A DNA stretch of 64,000 bases from Candidatus Woesearchaeota archaeon. Its GTDB lineage: Archaea; Nanobdellota; Nanobdellia; Pacearchaeales; GW2011-AR1. How positions within the stretch are numbered: the first letter of the stretch is position 1; each line of letters opens with the position of its first letter. The position numbers and the translations under genes are program-made. The notes beneath the pieces were generated by a model, which was not told the DNA's origin, made no database searches, and saw only the letters and a list, made by a program, of their open reading frames with translations. Positions 20,032 through 59,171 of the stretch are shown piece after piece. The stretch spans positions 72,783 to 136,782 of the forward strand of contig CAYHCG010000003.1 of NCBI GenBank assembly GCA_964355135.1, read 5' to 3'.

Positions 20032-20499
20032 ATGGTAGAAGTCAGAGCAATCACATCAGAAGAAAAAAGAATAGCAGGACTACTAGAAAAAATACTAAGG
20101 ACTTTTCCCCTATTAAAGGAAACGGATAAAATCCAAGTTCACTCTCACCATGGTAAATATGCAGTAGCATATCTAACAGAAGGAAATATTGATGCAGAAA
20201 CAACTCATTTTCGCCTAGAATTAAGAGAAGATATTTGCGATATGTCAAGATTTGCTAGCGATACGAATCTTGAGCATGCTCAAGAACTGAAAATTCTTGA
20301 CATTCTTGGTTTTGAAATTAAAGAAGACCAAAGAGACAAAGGATATGGAAGAGCATTATATCTAATTGTAGAAGAATTTGCTAGAGAAACAGGTTATAGG
20401 AAAGTACAAACTTCTCCATCCGGGCAGGGAGTCACTTTTTGGCCATATATGGGCCTAACACAACCCTGCGAATTTGGAGTAGAAAAGATATTATCATAA
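20032..20499 (+). CDS. GNAT-like acetyltransferase (tentative) carrying palindromic element copy B in frame
   Basis: Motif A-like RDKGYGRAL and a following helix. Nucleotides 20242-20303 are element copy B. Confidence 0.55.
   Translation: MVEVRAITSEEKRIAGLLEKILRTFPLLKETDKIQVHSHHGKYAVAYLTEGNIDAETTHFRLELREDICDMSRFASDTNLEHAQELKILDILGFEIKEDQRDKGYGRALYLIVEEFARETGYRKVQTSPSGQGVTFWPYMGLTQPCEFGVEKILS
20242..20303. repeat. nested palindromic MITE-like element, copy B (inside a CDS)
   Basis: ATGTCAAGA (20242-50), TCTTGAGCATGCTCAAGA (20268-85), TCTTGACAT (20295-303). Confidence 0.65.
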
Positions 20500-31040: not shown

Positions 31041-31097
31041 ATGTCAAGAATTAATTGAATTCTTGAGCATGCTCAGAAATCGGAGATTTATGACAAT
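31041..31097. repeat. nested palindromic MITE-like element, copy C, overlapping the aIF2-gamma promoter and start
   Basis: TTCTTTATATGTCAAGA left end, core TCTTGAGCATGCTCAGAA (one deletion), degenerate right arm TTATGACAAT that covers the ATG. Confidence 0.55.
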
Positions 31098-39285: not shown

Positions 39286-39639
39286 CTAATCTACACATTC
39301 TTCACTAACAGTTCCGTTATCTATACGATCATGACAACCATAAGGTATTCTGAATTCAGAACACTCACCACTAAGGCTACCTTCCTCAATAGGAGAACAA
39401 TAGCCTACACAATCTTCTCTAGAGTCATCACATGGTATTCCATAGTCGCTTGTTCTAAGATTACAGCCATATTCAGAACTTCTACCCCATTGAGCCCACT
39501 CGCCGTTATAAAAGTTACATACTGCTTCACTCCCTATATTGCCACCATCTCCAGAATAGTTTCTAAAATTACCACAACCAACGACACTAGAAGCTAACAA
39601 ACTCGTCAAGACAGCACCTCTCCTTAAGGAGTTTCTCAT
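39286..39639 (-). CDS. small Cys-rich lipoprotein
   Basis: Lipobox-like LLASSVVGC; eight further Cys in the ~96-aa mature part. Confidence 0.6.
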   Translation of the reverse strand: MRNSLRRGAVLTSLLASSVVGCGNFRNYSGDGGNIGSEAVCNFYNGEWAQWGRSSEYGCNLRTSDYGIPCDDSREDCVGYCSPIEEGSLSGECSEFRIPYGCHDRIDNGTVSEECVD

Positions 39640-39678
39640 AAAAAAAGGATGCCTAATTGTATTTATATACTTTTCGAT

Positions 39679-41689: not shown

Positions 41690-43330
41690 TCATGGACACG
41701 TTGGATTCTGCAAATCAATCAAGTAGGTTTTAATTGATCCAGAAATTTGAGTAATTTCAGTATAATCTATATAATATTTTCCAATATAATTTTCTAATTC
41801 AGCTTGACTAACGCAACCATTGCAAATATTTCCAGATAATAATCCGTCTGCCCCATTATTGCAATTAGTCGCCCCAATAATAACTTCTACGCCGCTAGAA
41901 TTAAAATTCCTAACTGTGAATATCTCTTGACCTATAAAATCTACAAATGGTTTATCGGGTCTTACGACTACGTCAAATTCGTCATTCAAAGGAGTATTGT
42001 CTAATAACTGTGTATCTGATTTAAACCCTCCAGATCCGTACAGTTCATTAATATGCAAAAATACTCCTCCATAAACTTCTAGTCCGTATAACTCGGGTAA
42101 ATAAAAATCATAACCTGTTGGTCTTCTATATTCTAAGTAATAGGAATATGGCCCGTCGTATGCGATTTTAATTGCCTTTGTTCCTCCAGAAATTTCTAAA
42201 GGAGTTATAAAATAAATTCCCCCTGTTGGATTGTTAATAATTTGGTTTGGATTTAACCAGCCAAGTTTTTCTTTATGAATTGCACTAAAATGACCTTTAG
42301 GCGTTGAATTACCCATAACATCAAATTGGTCTCCATAATTAATTGTATCACAACCATTAAAAGGTAAATATATATGGTCCCCCAAACAATCAAGATAATC
42401 CGCATGGTCTAACTTATAATTATGCCCAAGTTCATGAGCTATTGTAAAATCCCATCCATTTGGACCATCAAGATTCACAGTCCCAAATTTTGTAATTCCA
42501 TCAGCAGTAGAACGAGAAAATTCTCCCAAGTCGCTAATCGCCGCCCATGCTGGACAAATATCCCTTCCCCATGCAATAATTAGATTATCTACTTCTAGCC
42601 AATTGATATTATTGTTTATTGTAGGATCATTAATAATAAAATCTCGTAATGGATTTATTGAAGAACCAATACTACAAACAATATCTGAATTAAAAGGAAA
42701 GGTAATATATTCTGGGTAAATACTGTAATTTAACGACATCTGGTTATATGAATTCTCCTTATAATAGCTATTTATATCATTCATCAAAATTTCAGCATCT
42801 TCTTCACTTAAAAAATCAGTTTGATCATCTAAAAATTTCACCCTAAAGAATGTAACATTTTTCACCCCTACAACTGGAACAGGAACAACAAACTGTTGAC
42901 TATTTCCAATTAAACTAAAATCCTTAACATCTACCTCATTTTCTCCATTAACAGAATTTTCTTTTAATATTCCACTAACACTTATTTGCATTCCAGAAAC
43001 TAAATTCATATTTTCAGGCACCGAATTTAATCTATAACTGCCCTCTTGTGTTCTTATTGAATAAAGATATTCAACGAAACCTTTTTGAATATCCTCCCTA
43101 ATAACTACCTCAAGTTCTCCCTCAAAATTCTCAATATTTTCCAAGTTTTCACCTTCAACATTTTCATTTCTTCCATCTAATTTCTCAATAATATCTTCTC
43201 CATAAATAATCCTTTCATTTCTATAAAATCCTAAAATAATATTAAAAAACATTAAACTAATTAAAATTAAAACAATCACCCTTCTTTTCATCCAATAATC
43301 AATCTTCATCCATTTAAAATTCTTTCTCAA
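41690..43330 (-). CDS. secreted M11-like metalloprotease with EF-hand/dockerin-like tail
   Basis: HELGHNYKLDH, YYLEYRRPTGYD, and the tail VSQAELENYIGKYY. The likely true start is MKRRVIV at 43291, which fits TATA-N20-ATG. Confidence 0.8.
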   Translation of the reverse strand: MRKNFKWMKIDYWMKRRVIVLILISLMFFNIILGFYRNERIIYGEDIIEKLDGRNENVEGENLENIENFEGELEVVIREDIQKGFVEYLYSIRTQEGSYRLNSVPENMNLVSGMQISVSGILKENSVNGENEVDVKDFSLIGNSQQFVVPVPVVGVKNVTFFRVKFLDDQTDFLSEEDAEILMNDINSYYKENSYNQMSLNYSIYPEYITFPFNSDIVCSIGSSINPLRDFIINDPTINNNINWLEVDNLIIAWGRDICPAWAAISDLGEFSRSTADGITKFGTVNLDGPNGWDFTIAHELGHNYKLDHADYLDCLGDHIYLPFNGCDTINYGDQFDVMGNSTPKGHFSAIHKEKLGWLNPNQIINNPTGGIYFITPLEISGGTKAIKIAYDGPYSYYLEYRRPTGYDFYLPELYGLEVYGGVFLHINELYGSGGFKSDTQLLDNTPLNDEFDVVVRPDKPFVDFIGQEIFTVRNFNSSGVEVIIGATNCNNGADGLLSGNICNGCVSQAELENYIGKYYIDYTEITQISGSIKTYLIDLQNPTCP

Positions 43331-43334
43331 TCAC
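43284..43334 (-). promoter_or_regulatory. 51-nt segment identical to 51052-51102: BRE/TATA + leaderless start of the protease gene
   Basis: Exact 51/51 identity, checked base by base. Contains GAGAAAGAATTTTAAAT-N20-ATG on the minus strand. Confidence 0.6.
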
Positions 43335-43400
43335 GTATTTATGTGTTATCCGATTATTATTTTCTTGCTAAGCTTCATAAATCTAAGCAGATACTTTAGA

Positions 43401-44687
43401 TCACTGCAAAAGCCATTTCCATAAAGGCACAAACTTAATTCCATTTTCCGTCTTCTCAATATTTTTTGTCAAAATTATCATTTCTTTTGTTTTTATATAA
43501 AAGGACTTAAATTTTATTAAAGCATTAATTTCTCTTTCATCGATATCATCACTATAAGTAACATTTAAAGCAGTTAAAGAGCTGTCAGAATTTTTTATAA
43601 CAAAATCTACTTCCTCCTGTTTTTCACTTTTCCAATAATAAACATCTTTTTCTTCCCTTCTCAACTTTAAAAAAACCAGATTTTCAGCTAATTTTCCTTC
43701 ATCTTTTGAGAACTTGAAAGAGACAGAATTTCTAAGTCCATTGTCAATACAATAAATTTTTGATGCCGAAGTTTTCTGTTCTTTTAAAGAATATGAAAAG
43801 TGATCCAATGTAAAAAATAAGTATGCCTCTTTAAAATAAGAAATATAATTCTTTATTGAATCATAAGATATACCTAAAGAATTTCTTAGATTTCTTAATG
43901 ATGTTAAAGAAGTAAAATTGGTAATTAAATATAACGCAAGATCTCTAGTTTTCTGGCTGTTTAAATTGTTTCTATCTATTATATCTTTATATAAAATGTC
44001 ATCAAAATACTGTTTCAATAACTTAGATTTATATGTTTCTTCTTTAAAGAATATCTCTGGAAATCCTCCAATTTCAAGATAATTTTTAAAATTTTTAATT
44101 ATCTTTCTCTTCGTTTCTTCTAGTACAATCCCTTTAGAATGTTTTTCTTTATCAATTTCAATATCTCCAAATACAAGATACTCTTCAAAATTTAAAGGAA
44201 ACACTTCAAAAGTTAAGTTTCTCCCCGTAAGAAGAGTTGAATACTCCTTTCTAAGTAAATAAGAACATGAACCTGAAAGAATAAATTTTTCATCGCTTCT
44301 TTGGTCGTATTTTTTTCTTACCCATGATTCCCAATCTTCTTTTTTATGTATCTCATCAAGAAATACATATGCTTTTTTATCTGAATTTATATTTTCCCTA
44401 TAACTATCATAAATACTCTCTAGAGAGTCTTGACTTAGTTTTTTATCATCAAAATTAATAAATAATATTTGTTTTGGTTCTATTTCATCCTCTAAAAGTT
44501 TTTTAATCATTTGGTACATGAGCGTACTTTTCCCACTTCTCCTTACTCCTAAAATTATGGTTATTTCCCTAATGTTTATAGAATTGATTAAAGAATCATA
44601 AGCCGGCCTATGTTTTCCCGTTAATTTGTCAACTAATTCTTTCTTTATCCACCAAGGGTTCCATTCATTAAGTTTTTCTATTTCCAT
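43401..44687 (-). CDS. AAA+ ATPase of the AAA_14 + DUF4143 (COG1373) type
   Basis: NPWW N-terminus, Walker A GVRRSGKST, Walker B VFLDEI. C-terminal E-VDFVI nuclease-like motif. Confidence 0.88.
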   Translation of the reverse strand: MEIEKLNEWNPWWIKKELVDKLTGKHRPAYDSLINSINIREITIILGVRRSGKSTLMYQMIKKLLEDEIEPKQILFINFDDKKLSQDSLESIYDSYRENINSDKKAYVFLDEIHKKEDWESWVRKKYDQRSDEKFILSGSCSYLLRKEYSTLLTGRNLTFEVFPLNFEEYLVFGDIEIDKEKHSKGIVLEETKRKIIKNFKNYLEIGGFPEIFFKEETYKSKLLKQYFDDILYKDIIDRNNLNSQKTRDLALYLITNFTSLTSLRNLRNSLGISYDSIKNYISYFKEAYLFFTLDHFSYSLKEQKTSASKIYCIDNGLRNSVSFKFSKDEGKLAENLVFLKLRREEKDVYYWKSEKQEEVDFVIKNSDSSLTALNVTYSDDIDEREINALIKFKSFYIKTKEMIILTKNIEKTENGIKFVPLWKWLLQ

Positions 44688-44750
44688 GTTACAATACAGT
44701 GTAACATATAGTATATAAATGTTACGTTTAAACGTAACAAAAAAGTAACC
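44688..44750 (-). promoter_or_regulatory. TATA box bracketed by GTTAC/GTAAC palindromes upstream of the ATPase gene
   Basis: GTTACAATACAGTGTAAC (44688-44705), ATATAGTATATAAAT, perfect 18-bp palindrome GTTACGTTTAAACGTAAC (44721-44738), and a further GTAAC at 44745. Confidence 0.5.
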
Positions 44751-44760
44751 ATAAACTTAA

Positions 44761-46281
44761 TCAGCATCCGTCTAAATAATCCATAATATCATTAGACAAT
44801 TGACCAATATCCCTTGCCCCAGTATAATATTGAGAAATATAACCATTTAATGTATCTTGATTTATACATTGTGTACATGAATCAGTTTGTTCATTGCACG
44901 TCAGTCCGGCACTGCAAGGATCTGCGCTATCTTGGCATCCCAATGTTGTGTTACATATCTCATTTCCGTTGCAAAAATTATTGTCTGAACAATCTGCATC
45001 GTTTGTGCATGCTTCGCAATTTATTTTAAAAATAGAAGCAGAACCCGCATCAGGACCATTAATGTTGTCATCCCAATATGCTCCGCCTATAACTTGGTCA
45101 TCAGAAACACCTACTGAAAAACCGAAATATTCATTTGTTGCACCATTAGGAGCCAATAATTTAGCTTCTTGATTCCATTCTAAACCATTTTCACGAAAAA
45201 CATATACTGAACCTGATTGGCTACCTTGATCATTATCTTTATATGCACCGATTGCAACCAAATTATTTGAAATTGCAACAGATGAACCAAAATAATCGTT
45301 TATAAATCCATCCGAAGGCCAAAGTTCAGATTCTTGAACCCAACGTTCACCCTCAATTCGCTCAGGATGATACCGATAGACATAAGCTGAGCCGAAGCCC
45401 AATCCTCCACTGTTATCTTGATAAGCGCCAACTATAGCTTTATTTTCAAAAATAGCTACTGAATAACCAAAAAGATCATTAGCCATGCCTTCGATGGCCA
45501 ATAACTTCTGTTCTTGAACCCAGTTATATCCATCAAAATGAAAAACATAAGCAGAGCCAGCAGCGTTACCCAGATCATCATCAGCATAAGCTCCTATCAA
45601 AATATTATCGCTATCTATACTTACAGAGTATCCGAAGTTGTCTCCCCCAGCTGCATCTTCAGCCACTAAATTTTGCTCTAAAACCCAAGATGTACCATTA
45701 AACCTATACACATAAGTCGAGCCAGCTTTGTAAAGAGCTGGAGAAGGAGAATACTGATGAGCCCCTATAATAATAACGCTACCAGATATGTCGATAGAAC
45801 TTATCTTTCCATTACTACCTACACTGTACCTGGCCTCCAAAATTTGTTGTTCATTCCAACTCGTACCATTCCAATTAAAGATATAAACTGCCCCAGCTTG
45901 GCCATTGATATAATGATTCGGTGCACGAACTACGGCTGTATTGCCCTCAATTGCTACAGACGTACCAAAGGCGTCATAGGCTCCTTGATCTGAACCAAAA
46001 AGCTTCTGTTCTTGAATCCAATTCGAACCACCCCTACGAAATATATATGCCGAACCAGATTGTACTCCTTTATCACCATCCAATCTAGCCCCAACGATTG
46101 CTACATCACCTGAAATAGCCACTGAGTAGCCGAAAAAATCCGAAGCCGCACCATGCGAAGCCACAAGTTCAATCCCATCACTCACAGAGCAAGTGCTTTG
46201 AGCAATCGCAACTTCACTACTTAAAATAAATGTCGCAAATAATATTATAAAAACTAAAATCATCCCCTCTCTTTTCATCAT
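44761..46281 (-). CDS. secreted FG-GAP (integrin-alpha-like) beta-propeller protein with Cys-rich module and tail
   Basis: About eight repeats of FG.SVAI.G...IVGA..D.....GSAY[VI]F. C-terminal Cys repeat and LNGYISQYYTG tail. Confidence 0.85.
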   Translation of the reverse strand: MMKREGMILVFIILFATFILSSEVAIAQSTCSVSDGIELVASHGAASDFFGYSVAISGDVAIVGARLDGDKGVQSGSAYIFRRGGSNWIQEQKLFGSDQGAYDAFGTSVAIEGNTAVVRAPNHYINGQAGAVYIFNWNGTSWNEQQILEARYSVGSNGKISSIDISGSVIIIGAHQYSPSPALYKAGSTYVYRFNGTSWVLEQNLVAEDAAGGDNFGYSVSIDSDNILIGAYADDDLGNAAGSAYVFHFDGYNWVQEQKLLAIEGMANDLFGYSVAIFENKAIVGAYQDNSGGLGFGSAYVYRYHPERIEGERWVQESELWPSDGFINDYFGSSVAISNNLVAIGAYKDNDQGSQSGSVYVFRENGLEWNQEAKLLAPNGATNEYFGFSVGVSDDQVIGGAYWDDNINGPDAGSASIFKINCEACTNDADCSDNNFCNGNEICNTTLGCQDSADPCSAGLTCNEQTDSCTQCINQDTLNGYISQYYTGARDIGQLSNDIMDYLDGC

Positions 46282-46346
46282 ATTATTTATTCACACTCAT
46301 TTATATATTTTCAATATTTATATTTCTATTCATTTTGAACTAAATT

Positions 46347-49300
46347 CTACAAATAAACATCTAATGCGTTTGATAAATCGTTAATATTAACATTCCCCGC
46401 ATAATATCCATTAATATAATTAGTAATTTCATTGCTTTCTATGACGCCATTACAATCTCCATAAGGAGCGGTATCTGCGCCGGTATTACAACTAATTACT
46501 TGACACTGATCAATTGCCTCATTACAAGTTTGCGTTGAGGGATTGCAAGGTAGTATTCCAGAAACACATTTATCTACATCCGTCACATTAGTAGGATCAC
46601 AAATCTCCGTTCCGTCACAGAATAATCCATTGGAGCATAAAGCATTGTTAGAGGTGTGATCAATGCGATCAAGAGCTTCATCGCAACTATCTACAGTACA
46701 AGCAATATTATCATTTATATTTGGAGCGGTTCCTGCCTGACATCTCTGATTCGCATTGCAAGTTTCTACACCATTGCAATAATTATTATCGTTGCAATTA
46801 ATATCATCATTACATGTCAATCCAAATTCTACAACTGGATTTTTATCTGAATTCATTGTAACAAAGCAATGAATCCCATTAACAATGTTACACCCGCTCC
46901 ATGAAGTAAATGTAAATCCTGGATTAGAATCAATGGTTGCAGTTAAATCTACTGTTCCTGAAGCATAACTCGCAGAACAAGTCGGCCCACAATTAATTCC
47001 TGCAGGATTTGAAGTAACAGTCCCTCCTAATATCCCAGTTTTATTTACTGTCAAAATAAATCCAGATGAAGGAAGAACAGTTAAGGTAAATGAAGTCGTT
47101 CTAGTTATTCCTCCTGCAGTTCCATTAACATAAATAGTATGAATGCCTAAAGGTGTTGATGCCCCTGCGCTAATTGTCATTATAGTACTGCAAACAGTAT
47201 TTGGAATACAGTTAGTTGGGTTAAAACTTGCAGTTACTCCGCTAGGCAAATTGTATGCCAAAAATGAAACAGTTTGTGTCGTTCCAGAAACTAAATTAGC
47301 AGTTATCGTCGTTGAATTTGAATTCCCTCTTGCAACGCTTCTAGATCCAGAATTAGTAAGAGAAAAGTCAATAGGAGAGAAGCTGTTAAAAGTTGCAATA
47401 GGATTTCTATTACCATTCATATTCGCTGTACATACATTACCATTCACACTATCGCATCCGCTCCAAGAACCAAGTACATATCCGCTAGCGGCATTAGCTG
47501 TTAATGTTACAGGAGTATTTGCATTGTATGCTTCAGTGCAGTCGTTTAGAGTGCCGCTTCCACATGATATTCCTGTTCCGGTTATATTTCCCTGTCCAAT
47601 TACAGAAGTAGTTAGAGTAAATTGCTGAATAAACGTAGCAGTAGGATTAGCTGATGAACTTACTATACAATTTCCCGTTCCACTACATCCATTACTCCAT
47701 CCTGCAAACATATACCCACTTGCAGACATCGCTGTCAAGTTTACAGTAGTTCCTTGATTAAATGTTGCAGTGCAAGTAGCTCCACAATTGAGTTGACTTG
47801 CCTGATCAGGATTGCTTGTTGATGTAACTGTTCCCTGCCCAATTTTATTCACACTTACAGTATAACTTGAACTTGGATTAACAGTCATAGTAAAAATTCC
47901 TGATTTGGGAGCAACTCCTGAGCCAGAACTAGTGTCAATGTGGTTTACTGTATGAATTCCTGTTTGTGCAGAAGCCATGGCAGAATAAGTAAATGTTACT
48001 GTGCATGTTGTTGGTGTTGGCGTACATGTTTTATTATTACCACCGATCAAACTAACCCCACTAGGCAAGCTTCCAATATTTACACTAACTGGTAGGTCTA
48101 ATATGCTAAACGTCTCCGATATAGTCACTGTTTGCGATGTAGTACTACCTTGAGTTAAAGATATGGGAGGGGCACTTACGAAATAATCCATAAATATTGG
48201 TAAGTCAAATACAGCTACGACACTCCTGTTAGAATCCATATTCATAATACAAAGAGTGTCTGGAAAACCAATCTCATCGCACCCAAAGTAAACGTATTTG
48301 CTTCCTGCACTTGCATTAGCAGTTAATCTCGCCTGGGATCCAAAAGGATAACTGGCATTACATATATCTCCACAATTAATACTGATAGGGTTGCTCTTAA
48401 CTGTTCCTGTTCCACTGCCTATTTTGTTTACAGTTAATGTGTGGTAGCCAGATAAGAGTTGGCATGAATTTGTTGTTTCATCACAAGTATACCTAGAGGG
48501 ATTGCAGGAATCAGTATTATCCATGCAACCTTGAGCTGCAGTGCATATTTCACTGCCATCACAATATAATCCATTATCACATAAGCTATTTTGAGCAACA
48601 TGAGAACAGGACCCTGCATTGCAAATATCCTGAGTACAGCTAAATCCATCATTGCAATCAGCATTTTGCGTGCATTGTACCACATTACCGGCGGTAAATT
48701 TAACTTCTAAAGCAGGCCTAATTTCTCCATTCGCTGGATCAGTCAACGAACTCCATAATGAGATTCTAAGATCAGTATAAGGTTCATCAGGCATTGTATA
48801 AACATCATATCCTGCCCTCATACCTAAAGTGCTGTATCCTGTTTTATTTATATAATTAAGACCGATTGGATTAAATGTAAAAGTAATTTTATCCCCTGCC
48901 AATTCACTTATATCAACCCTATTTGCAAGTTCTACTGGGTTATCGACAGAACTGAATTTACTAAAATCGTCCGCCTGTAAAATGGGAGGATTTGTAATAT
49001 TAACAGGCACTAAAGTTATAAAATCATATGAAGCTGGATTAGTATTGAGAATAACCCCTGCTTTAGTAAGATTCAACTTAACAGATTGTATTAAAGCATT
49101 GTCAGGTATTGATGAAGTATCAAAAGAAATAGAAATTCTCTTTAAACCTTTTACTCCAGTAACGTTATACACATTGAACAGGTAGAGAGTATCGTACGGA
49201 GCCCCTACAACTCCGGTTTGTGCATTTCTTAAAGTATCCCAATTCGGTGCACTGTTTTGTGATTTAAATATTTCCGCTGCACCCGGGTAAGCTTCAACCT

Positions 49301-51098
49301 TTAAAGTGCATGTTCCATCTGGATTAATTGTATTTCCCTCTCCACATATAGGATCGACGCAAGATGAAGTATCAAATCTGCATGAAGAGTCGCAAGATAA
49401 AATTCCTCCCTGCCTATATCCAAGGCCATGACAACTCTCTCCACTAAAATTGATTCCATCACACTCCTCCCCACTGTCTAACTGGTTATTTCCACAAAGA
49501 AAATCACCCACTTCAATTTCTGCATAATCCTCAGTTAAATTTAATAGTCTTATACTTATATCATGATAAGGATCAAAAAAAGTTTCTCCGACCCTTAAGG
49601 CAACATCTGCCCTATAGTATCCTCCATCCCCTCCAACAGGACGCATATCGATAATATTTGTCATAGTATTTGAGTAATAATGATCATTACGAATTAATAC
49701 TCCGTCATAAACATCTAGTCCAATACCTGAAATAATAGCATCGTAACCAATTGATCTGCGATATTCTACATAATAATTATTGTCATAATAAATACTTCCA
49801 GTACCGGGGATAGGTATTTTCAGTGACTTTACCCCATTAGTATTTGTCTCAAGCGGTTCAATACGGTGTATCCCTTGGCTTGTTTGCAAAATTTGCGAAT
49901 ATTCAAGCCAACCCATATTTACTTTGTTGAACGCACTATAATGTCCTTTAGAGCTCCCCATAGTATCAAAAACATCTCCATAACCTCCCCCCAAACAGCC
50001 ATCATCATTTCTGATAACATCATCAAAGCAGTTTAGATATCCCGCATGTAAAAGTCCAAAATTGTGACCTAATTCGTGAGACCCAGCCCCATTTTCTATA
50101 AAATGCGGACCATTCAACATCATAGTACTCCATTCGGTTCCATTAAATAGTGCGGCTCCACTCATGTTTCTGAACGTATGCTTGCCTAAAGAAGCACCTC
50201 CAGCCATATTACAAGAAGAGTCCAGAGGAGTAATTATAATAATTCTGTCATATTGCATAATATCAACATGCTCTTGTACTAAAGTAAGATTCCAACCATA
50301 ACAAACACTGGTTATAGAATCTGTATACCATCCAAATACGTCTCCGCTAAGCCAAGTTTTCCCGCCAGAAACTTCCTGCACCCAGCTATTGAGAGAATCA
50401 GGCATTCCAGTCAACCCATCATTCTCATTATAATAACTTTCATTAAACATTCTGTCCCATACTTCTTCTCTTGTCATCGGTTCTATAAGGTTATCATATC
50501 TATTTATTAATACGACAACCACTTTCTGCTCCCCTAAATTATCTGCCTGCGTACCCGCAACTCCTCCCTCATTTATAACTTCAAATAATTGAACATCAAT
50601 TGTTTCATCTCCAGAAGCAACATTGCTAAAAGTTCCAGTAACTTCAATAGTTACTCCAGAAATTATATTGGGTTCTTGTCCTTGCGCAAAATTTAATTTG
50701 TATTGAGCTCCTTGCTCTGTCATTAAATGATATTCAAAATAAGAGTTTTCAGGATTATCAAAATCATCAAAAACCTTAACTAAAGAAGTGCCAGATAAGG
50801 TAACAGTTTCTCCAGGGTTGAAGAAGATATTTTCTGAACTATCAACTTTATCATCATTACTAAAACCAAAAAAATCTTTTACATCCTCCCAAAAACTATT
50901 TTCAGTTACTCCATTCAACTTTGTACTCTCTTCTCTCCCTTCATAGACACTAAAACCATTTACACTAAATTTAAAGATACCTAAAATAATAATTATTCCA
51001 ATTAATAATATCAAGGATACATAAAAAATATTTCTTTTCTTCCCCACCCCCCTTTTCATCCAATAATCAATCTTCATCCATTTAAAATTCTTTCTCAA
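46347..51098 (-). CDS. giant secreted M11-like metzincin with DNRLRE-like sandwich, InlB-B-repeat-like modules, Cys-rich repeats and tail
   Basis: HELGHNFGLLH; repeats such as TLTVNKIGSGTGTVKSNPISINCG; tail VIESNEITNYINGYYAGN. The likely true start is MKRGVGKK at 51059. Confidence 0.85.
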   Translation of the reverse strand: MRKNFKWMKIDYWMKRGVGKKRNIFYVSLILLIGIIIILGIFKFSVNGFSVYEGREESTKLNGVTENSFWEDVKDFFGFSNDDKVDSSENIFFNPGETVTLSGTSLVKVFDDFDNPENSYFEYHLMTEQGAQYKLNFAQGQEPNIISGVTIEVTGTFSNVASGDETIDVQLFEVINEGGVAGTQADNLGEQKVVVVLINRYDNLIEPMTREEVWDRMFNESYYNENDGLTGMPDSLNSWVQEVSGGKTWLSGDVFGWYTDSITSVCYGWNLTLVQEHVDIMQYDRIIIITPLDSSCNMAGGASLGKHTFRNMSGAALFNGTEWSTMMLNGPHFIENGAGSHELGHNFGLLHAGYLNCFDDVIRNDDGCLGGGYGDVFDTMGSSKGHYSAFNKVNMGWLEYSQILQTSQGIHRIEPLETNTNGVKSLKIPIPGTGSIYYDNNYYVEYRRSIGYDAIISGIGLDVYDGVLIRNDHYYSNTMTNIIDMRPVGGDGGYYRADVALRVGETFFDPYHDISIRLLNLTEDYAEIEVGDFLCGNNQLDSGEECDGINFSGESCHGLGYRQGGILSCDSSCRFDTSSCVDPICGEGNTINPDGTCTLKVEAYPGAAEIFKSQNSAPNWDTLRNAQTGVVGAPYDTLYLFNVYNVTGVKGLKRISISFDTSSIPDNALIQSVKLNLTKAGVILNTNPASYDFITLVPVNITNPPILQADDFSKFSSVDNPVELANRVDISELAGDKITFTFNPIGLNYINKTGYSTLGMRAGYDVYTMPDEPYTDLRISLWSSLTDPANGEIRPALEVKFTAGNVVQCTQNADCNDGFSCTQDICNAGSCSHVAQNSLCDNGLYCDGSEICTAAQGCMDNTDSCNPSRYTCDETTNSCQLLSGYHTLTVNKIGSGTGTVKSNPISINCGDICNASYPFGSQARLTANASAGSKYVYFGCDEIGFPDTLCIMNMDSNRSVVAVFDLPIFMDYFVSAPPISLTQGSTTSQTVTISETFSILDLPVSVNIGSLPSGVSLIGGNNKTCTPTPTTCTVTFTYSAMASAQTGIHTVNHIDTSSGSGVAPKSGIFTMTVNPSSSYTVSVNKIGQGTVTSTSNPDQASQLNCGATCTATFNQGTTVNLTAMSASGYMFAGWSNGCSGTGNCIVSSSANPTATFIQQFTLTTSVIGQGNITGTGISCGSGTLNDCTEAYNANTPVTLTANAASGYVLGSWSGCDSVNGNVCTANMNGNRNPIATFNSFSPIDFSLTNSGSRSVARGNSNSTTITANLVSGTTQTVSFLAYNLPSGVTASFNPTNCIPNTVCSTIMTISAGASTPLGIHTIYVNGTAGGITRTTSFTLTVLPSSGFILTVNKTGILGGTVTSNPAGINCGPTCSASYASGTVDLTATIDSNPGFTFTSWSGCNIVNGIHCFVTMNSDKNPVVEFGLTCNDDINCNDNNYCNGVETCNANQRCQAGTAPNINDNIACTVDSCDEALDRIDHTSNNALCSNGLFCDGTEICDPTNVTDVDKCVSGILPCNPSTQTCNEAIDQCQVISCNTGADTAPYGDCNGVIESNEITNYINGYYAGNVNINDLSNALDVYL

Positions 51099-51102
51099 TC
51101 AC
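51052..51102 (-). promoter_or_regulatory. 51-nt segment identical to 43284-43334, directly after the ATPase stop
   Basis: Same sequence. The ATPase stop codon (51099-51101) lies inside the identical block. Confidence 0.6.
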
Positions 51103-52382
51103 TGCAGAAGCCATTTCCAGACTGGAATTAGTTTTATTTTCTTCCCTTCAATATCTATACTTTCTTCTTCATCCAGAGTTATTATAATTCCTTCTTTAAG
51201 TTTAAATTTGTTTAATGCTTCAAATAATCCATTTACTTCCCGTTGTTTATTATCCATTGTAATTTTTTCACTCACTTGAATTGCCTCAACTATCTTTTCT
51301 TTTTCCAAAATTAGAAAATCACATTCATGATTATCCCTGTTATAAAATACCTTTTTACCTTTTCTCCTAAGTTCTAAAAAAACAATATTTTCAAGCAGTT
51401 TACCTCTATCTTCTGAAAATTTAAAACTTATTGCATTTAACATTCCATTATCTATAAAATATACTTTTTTTATCGAACCAAGCTGTTTTCCTAAGGAATA
51501 TTCATATTTTAAGTTCTGAAAGAAAAGATAGGCATCTTCAAAATAAGAGATATATTCAATAATTGTATTCTTGCTTGTATTCATACCCATAGATTTCAAT
51601 TTATTAGCAAGATTATTATAAGAAATATCTTTTGAAACAGATTCCATTAATAAATTTGCTAGTATTCTTATTTTCTTTACATCTTCTATTTTGTGCCTTT
51701 CAACAAGATCTTTAAAAATCATAGATTCATAATAGTTTTGCAAAATTTCTTCACTATTTACTTTCTGGAAAATTAAAGCAGGATACCCTCCATCTTTAAT
51801 ATAAGCATTAAATAACTTCTTAATTTCTATCCTATCATTACTATGTGGTAAAGTTCTAATATCATATTTTATCTTTTTCCAGCTGACAATTTCCTTAAAG
51901 CTTAATGGAAAGATTTCTTTATTGAGAACTCGTCCCCGTAATGTTGTTGATATTTCCTTGCTAAGTAATTTCGAACTTGAACCAGTAAGAACAAATTTAA
52001 TTTTCTTGTTTACATCATGAAGTTTTCTAACCCAAGAATCCCAATTTTTTACATTTTGTATTTCATCAAGAAATAAATATATCTTCTGATTTTTATTTAT
52101 ATCGTAAAGTTCAAAATAAGCCTGGAGAAGTTTTTCTAAATCGTCTGAATCTGCTCCAATAAGTTTATTATCTTCAAAGTTTATATATAAAATGTTCTCC
52201 CTTCCAACATTATTTTTAATTAGATCTTGCATAATTTGAAAACATACAAATGTCTTTCCTGCTCTTCTAGGTCCAGATATTGTAGTTATAAAATCTCCAT
52301 CTAAACTTATGTCATGGCTCCTGCTAAAAAGCTGGGGAATTTCAAATTCTTTCCAATTAGTTATTATTTCTTTATGATTCAT
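51099..52382 (-). CDS. AAA+ ATPase of the AAA_14 + DUF4143 (COG1373) type, paralog
   Basis: Walker A GPRRAGKT, Walker B LFLDEI, E-CDFLI motif. Same C-terminal VWKWLLQ as the 43401 paralog. Confidence 0.88.
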   Translation of the reverse strand: MNHKEIITNWKEFEIPQLFSRSHDISLDGDFITTISGPRRAGKTFVCFQIMQDLIKNNVGRENILYINFEDNKLIGADSDDLEKLLQAYFELYDINKNQKIYLFLDEIQNVKNWDSWVRKLHDVNKKIKFVLTGSSSKLLSKEISTTLRGRVLNKEIFPLSFKEIVSWKKIKYDIRTLPHSNDRIEIKKLFNAYIKDGGYPALIFQKVNSEEILQNYYESMIFKDLVERHKIEDVKKIRILANLLMESVSKDISYNNLANKLKSMGMNTSKNTIIEYISYFEDAYLFFQNLKYEYSLGKQLGSIKKVYFIDNGMLNAISFKFSEDRGKLLENIVFLELRRKGKKVFYNRDNHECDFLILEKEKIVEAIQVSEKITMDNKQREVNGLFEALNKFKLKEGIIITLDEEESIDIEGKKIKLIPVWKWLLQ

Positions 52383-52463
52383 ATTTTGTATTGAACAAAT
52401 TTGATATTATTTGTATTTTATATGATACATTTAACTATTTAAATCTTTCTAAACACTCTAAGC

Positions 52464-55400
52464 CTACAAATAGACCCCTAAAGCATTCGACAAATCGTTA
52501 ATATTAACATTCCCCGCATAATATCCATTGATATAATTAGTAATTTCATTACTCTCAATCACACCATCGCAATCTCCATAAGGAGCGGTATCTGCGCCGG
52601 TATTACAAACAACATTTTCACAAATATCGGTCTGCTCGTCACACGTCAGTCCGGCACTGCAAGGATCTGCGCTATCTTGGCATCCTTGCGTAGTACTGCA
52701 ACTTTCACTTCCGTCACAGAATAATCCATTGGAGCATAAAGCATTGTTAGATGTATGATTAATTCTGTCATTTGCTTCATCGCAACTATCTACAGTACAA
52801 GCAATATTATCATTTATATTTGGAGCGGTTCCTAACTGGCAATGCCCATTTCCAAGATTGCATGTTTCTGCACCATCACAATATAAATTATTACTACATT
52901 CACTATCTTGACCGCACTCTTTTGTATATTCCCAAACTGGATTCTTGTCTGAATTCATTGAAGTTATAGAACAAAGAGTTGGATTTGAAGCACTGCACCC
53001 GCTCCATGACATAATCGAGAATCCAGGAACAGAATCAGGGTACGCATTTAAAACAACTGGCGTGTTAGGAGCAAAACCTCTTGAACATGTGGAACCACAA
53101 TTTATTCCCCCCGTAGTTGAATTCACCATTCCAGTATAAATCCCCGTCTTATTTACCGTCAAAACATAACCTTGAGTAATGTTTAATGCAAATGTTGTTG
53201 TTTTTGTGACTAATCCACTTGTCCCATTTACATAAATAGTATAAGTTCCAGATACAGAAGGTACACTAGTAGACAAAGTCAAATTAGTTGAACAAACAGT
53301 ATTAGGCGTGCAACTAGCAGGAGTAAAATTCGCACTCACACCAGCAGGCAAACCATAAGCTAAAAACGAAACACTCTGCGGAGTACCAGTAATGAGCGTT
53401 GCATTGATAAGCGTAGTATTTGAATTTCCTCGTATAACTTTTCGTGTTCCTAAATTTGATAAACCAAAATTAAATGAATTATCTATAAAATTAGCAGTTA
53501 ATAAAGTTGGATTATTTGTCCTATTTACAGTGCACAAGTTTCCATTTTCAACAGGACAACCCGTCCAAGAAACAAAGCTACTTCCAGACATAGCTGTTGC
53601 ATTTAATAAAACTGTTTGAAATGTTTCAAAGGAATATGTACATACCCCAGGACAATTTATTCCTGTTGGGGTTGAATTTATTATTCCATTTCCCGTTCCT
53701 GCTTTCGCAACATTTACTGTATAAATCGAAATAGAATTTGAAAATGTTGCACTAACTGATTTCGAGGCATCCATTGTCACAACACAACTTCCTGTTCCGC
53801 TGCATCCCCCGCCCCATTCAACAAATGTCCACCCTTCTAAAGGTGTTGCAGTTAATGCAATTAAAGTACCTGTATTGACTGTTTCGCTACAATCCCCAGT
53901 TGATCCAGTTAAACAACTAATTCCGTTTCCAGTTATATTTCCAGATCCGATAACTGATGTTGTCAAAGTAAACTGTTGAATATTAAAGGTAGCATTTACA
54001 GTTTTAGCAGAATTCATAGTCACATTGCATAAAATATTTCCAGGCCCATAAACACTATTGCATCCAACCCAACCAGCAAATGTATTTCCAGGAGAGGCAG
54101 TTGCATTAAGAGTAACATTTGCATTTACTTTAAATGAAACATTTTGATTTAAACAAATAGCACCACATCCAATCTGATTTACCTGACTTGGAATACTTGT
54201 TGAATTTACAGTTCCAGTCCCAGTTCCTTTTTTGTTCAATGTCAAATTATAATTCAATTGATTTACAGTTAAGGTAAATGAGGTAGTATTAGTTAATCCT
54301 CCACTAGTACCGTTTACATAAATTGTATAAGTTCCAACAGGAGTAGAAGCACTAGTTGTCAAATTTAATATTGTTGAACATGTTGGATTACAGCTTGTAG
54401 GAATAAATGAAGCCGTTGTTCCAGGAGGCAACCCATAAGCCAAGAAAGACACAGCTTGTGTCGCACCAGAAATAAGCGTTGCATTTATTATATTTGTTAC
54501 GTTTGACCCCTGAATAACAGTTCTAGATCCATTATTAGATAGATTAAAATTAAATGAAGATAAAGTAAATGTAACATTAACTGTCTTCCAATCATTCATA
54601 GTCACATTGCATAAATTATTTCCTAGTCCATAAACAACACCACATCCAGTCCAGCTAGTAGAATATCCGCTAGAAGGATTTGCTATTAAAGTTACAACTG
54701 AATTAAAATTATAATCGAAATAATCTTCTTGACAAGTCAGACCGCAATTTATTCCGCTAGGATTACTTGTAACTGTTCCACTAGAAGCAGCACTTTTTTT
54801 ATACAACTCCAATGTTGGTTTTTCAAAAGACACATACACTGTACGATTCACATATAAAGTAACATTACATCTATTCCATGTAGAAGGATTATGATCTTGA
54901 TATAAATTATCACAACCTAAATAATAAGCTACATAATAATTTACTGGAGAAGTAAATAATAAACTCACATTTGTTCCATTATTAAAAATTCTAGTTTGAT
55001 AATCACAATTACTGCCACAATTAAACTGATTCCCATTATCTGGAACACTTGTTGAAGTAACCGTTCCATTAACTACTCCTTCCTGCCATAATTTTATCTG
55101 GAATTGCCTTACTGCGGATGTTGTAGAGAAATTCGCAATTACATTCTTATCTGAAGTCATTGTTACATTGCATAAGCTATTTCCTGGTCCAAATACAGAA
55201 TTGCATCCGGTCCAATTTACAAATGTACTTCCAAAGTCAGGATAAGCAGTTAAAGTCACATTTGTATTTGGGAGATATGTGTAGTTGCAAATTGTAGGGC
55301 AGCTGATAATCGTATCACTACTGAATACATATCCGTCCCCAGCGCCGATTCTGTTTACAGTTAAATTGTATCTAGGAATAGGTGCGAAAGTAGCATTTAC

Positions 55401-58400
55401 ATTCTTATTTGAAGTCATACTTACATTGCAATATATATTCTCAGGACCATAAACAACATTGCATCCTTGCCATCCAGTGAAGGTATTATCAGCATCAGCA
55501 AATGCTATCAATGCCACATTTGTATTTGGGAGATATGTGTAGTTGCATGTTGTACCGCAATAAATCAAGAAATCATCGCTATAAATAAGTCCGCCCCCAG
55601 TTTTGTTTACAGTTAAATTGTATCTAGGAATAGGTGCGAAAGTAGCATTTACATTCTTATTTGAAGTCATACTTACATTGCAATAAATATTTCCTGGTCC
55701 AAATACAGAGTTGCATCCAACCCAACCAGCAAATGTACTTTCAGTGAAAGCAGTGGCATTTAAAGTTACATTGGTATTTTGAAGATAGGTATAATTACAA
55801 TTTAATCCGCAATTGATAGTAAAGTCTTCACTTGTAACAAATCCCGTTCCGCTGCCAATTTTATTTACAGTTAAATTGTATCTAGGAATAGGCATGATAA
55901 AATTAGCCGTAGTTATTGTATGGTAAGTCATATTTATGCTACAAACATTTCCATAATAGAAATCACAATAACTCCAACCAGCAAATTCATGCCCGGCATA
56001 AGGCACAGCAGTTAAATTTACTATAGAACTATGATTAAATGTAAAGTTTTGTGATATGCAACTAGGCCCACAATTAATTCCTATCGGATTACTTGTGATA
56101 GTCCCGTTTCCATTTCCCTCTTTTGTAACATTTAAATCTGGTTTTTCAAATACAACTATAAGATTATTATCTTGATCCATAGTCATATTACATATGTTAT
56201 TTACCGAATCAAATGAATAACAATTTCCAGAATATCCAAAATACACTCCGCTTCCAGAATTAAATTTAATTGTTATATTTGCATTTCTATCAAATGTATA
56301 ATTTTGATTTTTGCAATTCGTCCCGCAAATCAAATTTCCAGGGTTAACTATTGTAATTCCGGTTCCGGTTCCATCTTTAATTAAAGTTAAATTAAAAGTA
56401 GCAGGATAGTTAAAAGTTGCATTTACATTCTTATTTGAAATCATAGTTACATTGCAGAATACATTGCCAAGCCCATAAACAACATTGCATCCTTGCCAAC
56501 TAGTAAATGTACTTCCTGCATCAGGATAAGCAGTCAAAGTAATATTTGTAAAATGATTAAATGTATTATTACAAGTTAGCCCGCAATTAATCAAAAAATC
56601 ATCGCTAACTATAAATCCTGTTCCACTTCCTGTTTTATTTACTGTTAAATTAAATTTAGGAACCAATAAATTAAAGTTAGCAATCACAAAACTAGGAACG
56701 AGAATATTAACTTGACATACTCCAATACCAGAACAAACTCCTTCCCATCCGCTAAACTCATATCCTACAGAAGGAAAAGCAGTTAAATTTATAGTAGTAC
56801 TTACATTAAAATTAAGATCTTGTGACAGACAACTCACATCGCAATTAAAGTTGGTTTGGTTTGGGCTGCTTGTCGAGTTTACAATTCCTAAACCATTACC
56901 TGACTTAGTCAGATAAAGTGTAGGCCTGTCAAAATAAGCAACCACAGATCTAGCAGAACTCATAGTCACATTGCATATAAGATTATACCCCATGTAATAA
57001 AATGAATCGCAATTATCCACTATATTCAAAGGAAAACCGCTTCCAGAAAAGAAAGTCAAACTAACATTAGCATTTCTGTTGAAAGTCGCATTTTGGTTTA
57101 GACATCCGATCCCACAATTTATTCCAGCAGGAACGCTTACCGCCGTTCCTGTTCCTGTTCCTGCCTTAGTTAAAGTCAAATTATAGAAAGGTGGAGGAAG
57201 ATTAAAATTTGCAACGACCATAGTATTAGAGTTTATTACAAGATTGCACACTCCAACCCCTGAGCAAGCTCCCGACCAACCCGTAAAGTCGTACCCTGGA
57301 CTAGGCACTGCAGTTAAACTAACTTGTGCTCCTTCACTAAAAGTAGCATTCTGAGATAAGCAACCTGTCATACAACTTATTCCTGCAGGAATGCTAGTAA
57401 CATTTCCCGTGCCAGTTCCAGCTTTATTCACGGTTAAATTATAGGGTCCGCCATTACCAGGAGGACTTCCACTTACACAATTACTAGTATCGATAAGGCA
57501 CCCATAACAGTTCAAGAATCCACTTGAATATGAGGGATTATAACTTTTGCAAGAAGCAGATTCTCCCATTCCAAAATTATATTCGTCGCACTGTTCTTCA
57601 TCTTCTAAATATCCATTACCACAATATCCCAATCTTATCGGAGATACCAAATAAAATCTTGATCTATTAGGATTTGTAGGAGGGACTAAAGTTATAAATT
57701 CAAACCTAGCTTCACCTATTAATCTTTGACTTAATCCACCAATAATCAACCCATATTTAGTTGCCCCTGTTGTATTTTTTACACTAAAATTGCCTGCCCT
57801 TTCTACATAAGTTATTCCCTCAAAAGAATAATTAGTAATATTAATTAAAGTAATATTGTAACCATTTCTAATTATGGATTTAGAGATATTCAATTCTACA
57901 AGATTTGTAAAATTCTCGCAATAATTATTACAGTCCGCTCCACCGTCACATTGTTCAGTTCCTTCCTTTATTCCGTTTCCGCAAAGGACATCAAAATTAA
58001 AATTGGGTGAAACAGTTAAATTAAAGTAAGTTTTTCTGCTCTCTCCACCCATAGTTCCGGTTACATTTATTTTATAAACTCCAGTCGAAGCTGATGTCAA
58101 TGAACTTATATTCATCCTTGTAATACATGTAGGGTTGCAACTTGTTGGAGAGAATGTTGCACTTACTCCGCTAGGAAGGCCACTTACAGAAAAAGCAACA
58201 GGAAATACAGAACCATCCCAATAAATTGCAGTGATGTTATTTATTACAGAAGACCCCTTATAGACTGTTTTATCTCCATTATTTGTAAGTGAAAAATTCT
58301 GCTCTCTTACTGGCTGGCAATTGCTAAAATCGAGATTGCAAACTGAATTACAGTTTAAATTTCCATCGATATAACTTGGGTGATAATTTAAACATGTTTG

Positions 58401-59171
58401 AATAATATCATAGCCCTTTGAGTCATAACCTAATCCATAATCTTTAATATCACATTGTTCGCCCGTTTCTAATAAAGCATTTCCACAATAATTCAATCTA
58501 ATTGGTGCAGCAATCTTTAATTTTGCAGAAACAGGGGAGCCTCCAGAATAACTAAATTCACTATCAATTCTTACCAAGTTAGTGATATATTGACTACGAG
58601 CCATGCCTAAGGCATTATAGATTCTTGATTTATTTATTCCAGCAGGATTTTTAACGCTTATATTAATTGCAGATATAAAACTAATTGTAGGAAATCCTTC
58701 AATTTTTATTGTGTATCCATTTAAAACAGCTGATTGTCCAGGAGTTAATTCTCTATAAACAGAATTCTCACAATAATTATTGCATCCGCTGCTAATATTA
58801 TTATTTTGAACACTGCCAAGATCACATTGCTCCCCTAGACCAGAGTCTAAGACCCCATTTCCGCAGGAGTCAGTTTGTGGACTCAACCAAACATCTTCAG
58901 AGACTTCATCTTCGCTAGACGTTTGAGGATCACCATCCCCCTTAGAATCAGAACCTACAATAAAATTTTTAATCTCATCAACAACATCACTAAAAACAGA
59001 ATTTCCCGTAATTGCATTTGCGCTCTGTGCATCAGAATTAGAGATTAAATAATCAGCATTTCTGTTTTTTGATAAAGTAAAAAAACCAAACGAAAAAGCA
59101 AACAATAAAACAAGAAGAGATAGTGTCGCAGCCAAAGCTAGCCTTTTATTCTTTCCCGCCCTCTTTTTCAT
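52464..59171 (-). CDS. giant (2235 aa) surface protein: duplicated Cys-bounded N-modules, about 20 or more InlB-B-repeat-like modules, Ig-like modules, Cys-rich repeats and tail
   Basis: Signal anchor. Recurrent unit YNLTVNK.G.GTG.V.S.P.GI.CG..C...F......V.LTA.P..G..F.GW.G.C.....C.V.M. Tail identical in type to 46347. Confidence 0.88.
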   Translation of the reverse strand: MKKRAGKNKRLALAATLSLLVLLFAFSFGFFTLSKNRNADYLISNSDAQSANAITGNSVFSDVVDEIKNFIVGSDSKGDGDPQTSSEDEVSEDVWLSPQTDSCGNGVLDSGLGEQCDLGSVQNNNISSGCNNYCENSVYRELTPGQSAVLNGYTIKIEGFPTISFISAINISVKNPAGINKSRIYNALGMARSQYITNLVRIDSEFSYSGGSPVSAKLKIAAPIRLNYCGNALLETGEQCDIKDYGLGYDSKGYDIIQTCLNYHPSYIDGNLNCNSVCNLDFSNCQPVREQNFSLTNNGDKTVYKGSSVINNITAIYWDGSVFPVAFSVSGLPSGVSATFSPTSCNPTCITRMNISSLTSASTGVYKINVTGTMGGESRKTYFNLTVSPNFNFDVLCGNGIKEGTEQCDGGADCNNYCENFTNLVELNISKSIIRNGYNITLINITNYSFEGITYVERAGNFSVKNTTGATKYGLIIGGLSQRLIGEARFEFITLVPPTNPNRSRFYLVSPIRLGYCGNGYLEDEEQCDEYNFGMGESASCKSYNPSYSSGFLNCYGCLIDTSNCVSGSPPGNGGPYNLTVNKAGTGTGNVTSIPAGISCMTGCLSQNATFSEGAQVSLTAVPSPGYDFTGWSGACSGVGVCNLVINSNTMVVANFNLPPPFYNLTLTKAGTGTGTAVSVPAGINCGIGCLNQNATFNRNANVSLTFFSGSGFPLNIVDNCDSFYYMGYNLICNVTMSSARSVVAYFDRPTLYLTKSGNGLGIVNSTSSPNQTNFNCDVSCLSQDLNFNVSTTINLTAFPSVGYEFSGWEGVCSGIGVCQVNILVPSFVIANFNLLVPKFNLTVNKTGSGTGFIVSDDFLINCGLTCNNTFNHFTNITLTAYPDAGSTFTSWQGCNVVYGLGNVFCNVTMISNKNVNATFNYPATFNLTLIKDGTGTGITIVNPGNLICGTNCKNQNYTFDRNANITIKFNSGSGVYFGYSGNCYSFDSVNNICNMTMDQDNNLIVVFEKPDLNVTKEGNGNGTITSNPIGINCGPSCISQNFTFNHSSIVNLTAVPYAGHEFAGWSYCDFYYGNVCSINMTYHTITTANFIMPIPRYNLTVNKIGSGTGFVTSEDFTINCGLNCNYTYLQNTNVTLNATAFTESTFAGWVGCNSVFGPGNIYCNVSMTSNKNVNATFAPIPRYNLTVNKTGGGLIYSDDFLIYCGTTCNYTYLPNTNVALIAFADADNTFTGWQGCNVVYGPENIYCNVSMTSNKNVNATFAPIPRYNLTVNRIGAGDGYVFSSDTIISCPTICNYTYLPNTNVTLTAYPDFGSTFVNWTGCNSVFGPGNSLCNVTMTSDKNVIANFSTTSAVRQFQIKLWQEGVVNGTVTSTSVPDNGNQFNCGSNCDYQTRIFNNGTNVSLLFTSPVNYYVAYYLGCDNLYQDHNPSTWNRCNVTLYVNRTVYVSFEKPTLELYKKSAASSGTVTSNPSGINCGLTCQEDYFDYNFNSVVTLIANPSSGYSTSWTGCGVVYGLGNNLCNVTMNDWKTVNVTFTLSSFNFNLSNNGSRTVIQGSNVTNIINATLISGATQAVSFLAYGLPPGTTASFIPTSCNPTCSTILNLTTSASTPVGTYTIYVNGTSGGLTNTTSFTLTVNQLNYNLTLNKKGTGTGTVNSTSIPSQVNQIGCGAICLNQNVSFKVNANVTLNATASPGNTFAGWVGCNSVYGPGNILCNVTMNSAKTVNATFNIQQFTLTTSVIGSGNITGNGISCLTGSTGDCSETVNTGTLIALTATPLEGWTFVEWGGGCSGTGSCVVTMDASKSVSATFSNSISIYTVNVAKAGTGNGIINSTPTGINCPGVCTYSFETFQTVLLNATAMSGSSFVSWTGCPVENGNLCTVNRTNNPTLLTANFIDNSFNFGLSNLGTRKVIRGNSNTTLINATLITGTPQSVSFLAYGLPAGVSANFTPASCTPNTVCSTNLTLSTSVPSVSGTYTIYVNGTSGLVTKTTTFALNITQGYVLTVNKTGIYTGMVNSTTGGINCGSTCSRGFAPNTPVVLNAYPDSVPGFSIMSWSGCSASNPTLCSITSMNSDKNPVWEYTKECGQDSECSNNLYCDGAETCNLGNGHCQLGTAPNINDNIACTVDSCDEANDRINHTSNNALCSNGLFCDGSESCSTTQGCQDSADPCSAGLTCDEQTDICENVVCNTGADTAPYGDCDGVIESNEITNYINGYYAGNVNINDLSNALGVYL
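55354..55950 (-). repeat. near-identical tandem repeat units (252 and 258 bp) inside the giant gene
   Basis: ACAGTTAAATTGTATCTAGGAATAGG starts at 55357, 55609 and 55867. Copies 1 and 2 share a run of ~80 identical nt. Confidence 0.8.

Follow-up and report, generated by a model that had tools for sequence, protein, structure and literature searches.

Why do two gene junctions in one archaeal genome share 51 nucleotides (nt) without a mismatch when the sequence around them has diverged? The question arises in a 64,000-nt stretch of contig CAYHCG010000003.1 from Candidatus Woesearchaeota archaeon (referred to throughout as the window), one of the contigs from the 0.1-µm fraction of Hainich groundwater well H52. 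Between positions 41690 and 59171, the genes follow one another in transcription order as adhesin, AAA+ ATPase and secreted protease, and then again as adhesin, ATPase and protease, with the identical block at both ATPase-protease junctions. The original prediction took this island for a tandemly duplicated three-gene module in which the ATPases are functionally linked to the secreted proteins. The gene order and the AAA_14 plus DUF4143 architecture of the ATPases were confirmed. We consider it probable, however, that the block is a promoter-start cassette common to at least three secreted-protease genes, most likely homogenized by gene conversion.

The 51-nt block and the genes it precedes

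The block consists of GTGA followed by TTGAGAAAGAATTTTAAATGGATGAAGATTGATTATTGGATGAAAAG on the minus strand, and its copies in the 43-kb and the 51-kb gene sets (Table 1) are identical at 51 of 51 positions, with zero mismatches. At their 3' ends, the two ATPase genes agree at 19 of the final 20 nt, counting the stop codons (43401-43420 versus 51099-51118). Overall identity between the two ATPase-to-protease regions is 57%; the block is their longest identical run (51 nt, P ~4e-11), and the runner-up measures 13 nt. None of 100 runs with shuffled sequence yielded the block match, and in a self-BLAST of the window the block was the sole repeat with ≥92% identity. In the 51-kb copy, GTGA takes in the stop codon of the upstream ATPase; in the 43-kb copy, a 66-nt insert, bounded by TCAC as read on the plus strand, intervenes. 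The identity, the similar ATPase tails and the bounded insert thus all held up as originally described. The insert has no second copy in any sequence searched and was, as unique sequence, rejected as a repeat or small mobile element. The closest relative lacks it at the orthologous junction, and it most plausibly arose later, by local insertion into the 43-kb copy with a 4-nt duplication. A structured RNA was also rejected, as the block, the insert and the two joined fold no better than shuffled sequences (z 0.2-0.8); an Rfam scan of the window gave zero matches.

What the block encodes can be read from its geometry. The window encodes an archaeal aIF5B/aIF-2 scoring above the equivalog threshold, and relatives of the ATPases are labeled Woese-, Pace- and Nanoarchaeota. 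Because the host is a DPANN archaeon, reading its promoters as B recognition element (BRE) plus TATA box is appropriate. TTTAWAW lies 27-30 nt upstream of an in-frame ATG in 16 of the 45 open reading frames (ORFs) of the window and 27-33 nt upstream in 17 of 45; the distances peak sharply at 29 nt, as they do among all ATGs in the window. In the block, TTTAWAW begins 27 nt upstream of the ATG, a spacing proper to an archaeal BRE/TATA promoter, and other island genes have the same promoter geometry. As proposed, the block holds a core promoter of the BRE/TATA type and a protease gene's 5' end. It looks like a complete leaderless core promoter together with the first codons (M-K-R) of a signal peptide, and its ATG probably occupies the position at which leaderless genes of this genome begin. 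With a purine-rich stretch and a TTTAAAT box 27-29 nt upstream of ATG, as in many window genes, it resembles other archaeal leaderless core promoters. In those promoters, however, usually only BRE/TATA is conserved, whereas in the block the spacer is identical too. The block also contains an internal direct repeat, TGGATGAA, with its two units 20 nt apart.

A third copy decides to which genes the block belongs. A search with the N-terminal part of the 51-kb protease (46347-51059) returned a further paralog, P0241 (826 residues, 44% identity), from the same well. At its locus (L054), the block lies at 2456-2503, with one extra A, immediately before ATGAAAAG. The longest contig reported for P0241 measures 149,536 nt, as for the ATPase of the 43-kb set, and the third copy thus apparently resides in the same genome and on the same contig. 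This copy begins 7 nt after an unrelated stop codon, and its upstream neighbors are a 57-residue ORF and a LUD-domain gene; a degraded ATPase upstream was rejected, as these neighbors have no similarity to ATPases. The third block precedes an M11-like protease with no ATPase upstream, and the block, therefore, is not specific to the three-gene arrangement and belongs to the protease genes rather than to the ATPase-protease junction. In all three copies, identity begins a few bases upstream of the BRE and ends after ATGAAAAG.

Several lines of evidence point to copying within the genome. First, the closest relative of the 43-kb ATPase (81% identity), found in Hainich well H43 (L045-47, L056-57), is likewise followed by an ortholog of the 43-kb protease (57.6%), and the junction at L045 is compact, consisting of the ATPase stop codon, 39 nt and the ATG. 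Over the 39 nt before the ATG, the window copies agree at 39/39 positions and the third copy at 37/39, whereas the L045 ortholog agrees at 26/39 and other island (paralog) promoters at 18-20/39. Paralogous copies within the genome are thus more alike than orthologs between genomes, as judged from the one relative available. A promoter that changes from genome to genome but keeps to one form within this genome bears the signature of concerted evolution. Second, the block-bearing protease coding sequences are 28-44% identical. The original view that the block does not stem from a recent duplication of whole genes was upheld. With coding sequences this diverged and the nearest orthologous promoter at 67% identity, the copies were most likely made identical inside the genome by short-tract gene conversion. 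Third, the identical tract is sharply bounded within diverged sequence, and BRE/TATA, ATGAAAAG and the WKWLL codons of the ATPases are available as anchors.

We, therefore, suggest that short-tract gene conversion equalizes the promoter copies. The tract would be anchored on its left by the conserved BRE/TATA and on its right by the ATGAAAAG(R)GG start common to the signal peptides of the island. Between the window copies, the tract seems to extend into the ATPase tails, through GTGA and a CAG codon (CAGTGA), and the family-wide WKWLL would add homology there. WKWLL is kept across the ATPase family, the tail beyond it is variable, and both window ATPases end in Q-stop. The two ATPases themselves would have had no part in the conversion event, being separate stand-alone genes with their own operator-promoters; placed in a tightly packed variable island, they would come to touch the next gene's promoter with their stop codon, as in the 51-kb copy and at L045.

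Patches of 82-90% nucleotide identity also occur in the C-terminal Cys-rich/tail modules of island proteins that are otherwise far apart (46347-46742 versus 52464-52841, and 44881-44940 versus 52626-52685). They are likely further conversion tracts and suggest that such exchange may be common in the island. In the relative, an IS91-family (Y2) transposase gene closes the protease island (L045, 8085-9221), which agrees with a reading of the island as variable.

Gene conversion that acts on the promoter and signal-peptide regions at the 5' end of genes is familiar from bacterial families of surface proteins (Mycoplasma vsp/vlp and Neisseria opa/pil, for instance). The protease genes resemble these families in having dispersed paralogs with a near-identical short 5' region, conserved 3' modules and diverged middles, and in showing higher identity within the genome than between orthologs. 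They differ in that a DPANN genome with three known copies carries the element, a leaderless archaeal promoter of the BRE/TATA type, and a switching device, be it an invertible element, a homopolymer tract, silent cassettes or another kind, was not seen here.

The two ATPases, their promoters and their neighborhoods

The ATPases of the 43-kb and 51-kb sets (ATPase-43 and ATPase-51) are 39% identical to each other and have much closer relatives elsewhere (Table 1); thus, they are ancient paralogs of different subfamilies. Both cover nearly the whole profile of PADLOC model PDLC04787 (E ~1e-107 to 3e-107 and 1e-115). PDC-S01 is a single-gene putative defense candidate in which an ATPase is fused to a PD-(D/E)XK-superfamily domain; it ranks fourth in frequency among prokaryotic defense systems and is abundant in archaea, with 9,986 instances in 7,747 archaeal genomes, and its defense activity is unproven (PMC12988326). 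DUF4143 is itself listed in the PD-(D/E)XK superfamily, with function unknown (PMC3424549). The window ATPases share with PDC-S01 (COG1373), a candidate for phage defense, the two-domain architecture, patchy distribution and many copies; by contrast, the family description is without any neighboring proteases. Many PDC-S01 homologs were found on 1.4- to 1.6-kb contigs holding the gene alone, and at several loci (among L017, L021, L028, L034, L036 and L042) two or three paralogs lie side by side, which hints at many copies or strain-variable flanks.

Each ATPase gene has its own conserved promoter. In the ATPase-43 promoter, the TATA box ATTTATATA lies between two GTTAC-N8-GTAAC palindromes. 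At least one copy of the palindrome is present in 34 of 47 ATPase-43-related loci (among L056-L113, from many metagenomes), and mostly both are; they also occur at L045 (1910-1959). The promoter of this subfamily is kept despite unrelated upstream DNA, and the subfamily may, as this arrangement suggests, be under tight, possibly auto-, repression. A shared regulon with GTTAC-N8-GTAAC near the protease genes was rejected, as the palindromes occur only at the ATPase promoter. The ATPase-51 promoter, with palindromes of different sequence (Table 1), is likewise kept in relatives in unrelated contexts (L004, L014-L024), and similarity ends at or just upstream of the BRE.

A survey of neighborhoods argues against the proposed functional link. 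When island proteins were compared by tblastn with ~100 loci, proteases stood beside the ATPase only in one close relative. For ATPase-51, the adjacency is missing at all 30 GTDB loci and the P0012 loci of its relatives; for ATPase-43, it is missing at every locus except those of the one close relative. No island-type protease lies within 4-6 kb of the ATPase in ~95 loci, the neighbors being unrelated housekeeping or hypothetical genes. The third block without an ATPase, the conserved promoter of each ATPase and the match to a stand-alone defense family count against the link as well. With promoters of their own and unrelated neighbors in ~95 loci, both window ATPases are, by sequence, stand-alone candidate defense genes of the PDC-S01 type, and for the conserved pairing with a protease in the one near relative, synteny inherited within a compact genome is the simplest explanation.

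The downstream flanks were compared as well. The block was rejected as a 3'-flank feature of the ATPase family, as ~30 ATPase-51 and ~30 ATPase-43 relatives have neither the block nor a common downstream motif. Just past the ATPase stop codon, four ATPase-51 relatives in different genomes (L015, L019, L021, L030) carry an inverted repeat, (A)GAAAGTATATC-N-GATATACTTTGTGTAAAC, which is missing from the window copies. At two loci (L051, L089), the sequence in this position resembles, as judged by eye, the terminal part of an opposite-strand tRNA gene.

The two adhesins, an FG-GAP repeat protein (44761-46281) and a giant Flg_new_2 repeat protein (52464-59171), align only over their last ~95 residues, a Cys-rich/tail module that also occurs in other island proteins, and the C-terminal 500 residues of the giant protein are 52% identical to the C-terminus of the 51-kb protease. 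The common tail matches no Pfam family, and its reading as dockerin-like found no support there. The window encodes five M11-like protease paralogs; the nearest to the 51-kb protease is that at 61805-63946 (42%), and the 43-kb protease is the most distant (~28%). Both block-linked proteases, whose nearest known kin are gametolysin-like (M11) and M6-like zinc metalloproteases, carry the zinc-binding motif HELGH, an HExxH-type site. Neither has a Pfam protease match, their hits to TIGR03296 are weak (32-36 bits versus a cut-off of 110.8), and protease paralogs and distant homologs match PF05548. They differ from the M11/M6 enzymes in scoring below the curated thresholds of every model and in being fused to Cys-rich, Flg_new_2 and tail modules. 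Of the proposed tandem duplication, what stands is that the ATPases (39%) and the proteases (~28%) each form a paralogous pair; the adhesins do not beyond their tail. Had the genes been duplicated together, each should be the nearest relative of its counterpart; this fails for the ATPases, which have closer relatives elsewhere, and for the 51-kb protease. None of the three gene pairs behaves as the product of one tandem duplication.

Weighing the explanations

Some points weigh against homogenization by gene conversion. The case for it is built on the pattern of identity; the orthologous junction comes from a single organism (L045-47, L056-57), and the databases searched held no relative with a 51-kb-type junction and no ortholog of the 51-kb protease closer than 44%, its best match being the third paralog of the same genome. 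The third copy, moreover, is placed in this genome by its matching longest contig and sample, which makes the assignment a probable one. Could the junctions be artifacts, chimeric joins made at a short repeat? The data are metagenome assemblies, and one k-mer unitig (L003) ends within the block, as is expected of a true repeat. However, replicate samples R2 and R3, assembled separately, yield both junctions in identical form, for both ATPase proteins longer contigs are on record too, and a 51-nt repeat is shorter than the reads spanning it, so that we give this explanation practically no credence. The main alternative is strict selection without conversion, in which the whole 47 nt would be the site of a genome-specific regulator co-controlling the protease paralogs. 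It would explain why, in each of the three copies, identity halts precisely where the promoter does, at boundaries that are functional and also fit strong selection on a protein-binding site, and it could account for the direct repeat within the block. A candidate regulator is encoded in the island: the 810-residue protein at 59222-61654 on the minus strand has a bacterial-type sigma-70 region 4 helix-turn-helix (residues ~313-397) and a weak match to the defense-associated sigma factor MzaA. Against such selection, the orthologous L045 promoter differs at 13 of 39 positions and is without the TGGATGAA repeat, other island promoters of the same geometry match at only 18-20 of 39, and without copying, three long-diverged paralogs would hardly have arrived at the same base at every variable position. 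We, therefore, regard selection in place of conversion as unlikely; selection on a regulator site is compatible with gene conversion, and the two are not mutually exclusive.

Two further explanations put the ATPases at the center. In the module model, an ancestral adhesin-ATPase-protease set was duplicated in tandem and the junction was kept because the ATPase works with the secreted proteins. The repeated gene order, the homologous ATPase and protease pairs and the retention of ATPase-43 beside a protease, with the same compact junction, in one relative all fit such a history. However, the adhesins are not homologous beyond the common tail, each ATPase is far closer to relatives in other lineages than to its neighbor, no two of the protease paralogs are further apart than this pair, a promoter of its own precedes each gene, the third block has no ATPase and the adjacency is missing at ~95 other loci. 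This model is already largely refuted, and we hold it to be very unlikely. Alternatively, the ATPase genes might be mobile cassettes whose insertion point is the left edge of the protease promoter, with the window copies and L045 as filled sites and L054 as an empty one. In keeping with mobility, close relatives reside in unrelated contexts, many homologs are known from contigs with the gene alone, paralogs cluster, and DUF4143 is classed among PD-(D/E)XK nucleases (PMC3424549); both at L045 and in the 51-kb copy, the ATPase stop codon directly adjoins the block, and at L054 an unrelated stop codon lies 7 nt before it. By contrast, the 3' flanks of ~60 loci from both subfamilies have no common motif, the gene is bordered by neither terminal repeats nor a target duplication, similarity upstream stops at the BRE, as expected of a plain promoter, and no recombinase is present. 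Insertion of mobile cassettes is, thus, an explanation to which we attach very slight weight, and a promoter-start cassette homogenized by gene conversion remains our preferred reading.

Locus features and biological meaning

Table 1. Positions of the block, the promoters and the genes of the island within the window
Feature	Position	Strand	Description
Block copy 1 (43-kb set), 51 nt	43284-43334	-	GTGA, purine-rich BRE-like stretch, TATA box TTTTAAAT (43312-43319), 20-nt spacer, ATGAAAAG
Start codon in block copy 1	43289-43291	-	ATG; opens protease 41690-43291
Insert, 66 nt	43335-43400	-	Separates ATPase-43 stop codon from block copy 1; GTGA duplicated at both sides
Block copy 2 (51-kb set), 51 nt	51052-51102	-	Identical to copy 1; TATA box 51080-51087
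Start codon in block copy 2	51057-51059	-	ATG; opens protease 46347-51059
Protease, 43-kb set	41690-43291	-	Secreted M11/M6-like metalloprotease paralog, 533 residues, HELGH motif; L045 ortholog 57.6%
ATPase-43	43401-44687	-	AAA_14 + DUF4143; full-length PADLOC PDC-S01 match; relatives 65-81% in other DPANN archaea
ATPase-43 promoter	44688-44738	-	Two GTTAC-N8-GTAAC palindromes (44688-44705, 44721-44738) around TATA box ATTTATATA; second abuts ATG
Adhesin, 43-kb set	44761-46281	-	FG-GAP repeat surface protein
Protease, 51-kb set	46347-51059	-	Secreted M11/M6-like metalloprotease paralog, 1570 residues, Flg_new_2 repeats and common C-terminal module
ATPase-51	51099-52382	-	AAA_14 + DUF4143; PDC-S01 match; second subfamily; relatives 57-77% in 30 other genomes
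ATPase-51 promoter	52383-52451	-	BRE/TATA, then TGTAT-N8-ATACA and ACAAAT-N8-ATTTGT
Adhesin, 51-kb set	52464-59171	-	Giant Flg_new_2 repeat surface protein

Elsewhere in the window, an element of ~50 nt, ATATGTCAAGAnTT...TCTTGAGCATGCTCAAGAA, occurs in three copies around a perfect 18-nt palindrome (12587-12604, 20268-20285 and 31061-31078), with a chance expectation of 0.04 and no Rfam match. Next to the island, the secreted protein at 39679-41670 on the minus strand ends ~14 residues past a pretoxin HINT domain, without a toxin domain, and is followed by a 117-residue ORF without family matches; this region (39286-41670) may be a truncated or split polymorphic-toxin locus.

Altogether, these findings support a scenario in which a repeated gene order and an identical junction mimicked a functional ATPase-protease module, the actual arrangement being a promoter cassette of protease paralogs beside stand-alone candidate defense genes. 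PDC-S01 ATPases are among the commonest candidate defense genes, and the conserved palindromic predicted operators of their promoters offer a handle on the regulation of the family and are a more promising lead than the block itself.

The concerted evolution of a promoter seen here is a known kind of phenomenon of which the protease genes provide a neat archaeal example: one clean case, in a reduced DPANN genome, in which an entire archaeal core promoter has evolved in concert. A bolder possibility, which we consider quite improbable, is that the 5' promoter-start cassette and the 3' Cys-rich/tail module serve as recombination anchors between which the variable middles of surface protease and adhesin genes are shuffled, and that the PDC-S01 nuclease-ATPases could even supply the DNA breaks. 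If true, such anchor-based shuffling would be a cassette-type system of surface variation not yet described in archaea. The probably homogenized promoter of these secreted proteases bears on how such episymbionts vary and co-express their surface proteins.

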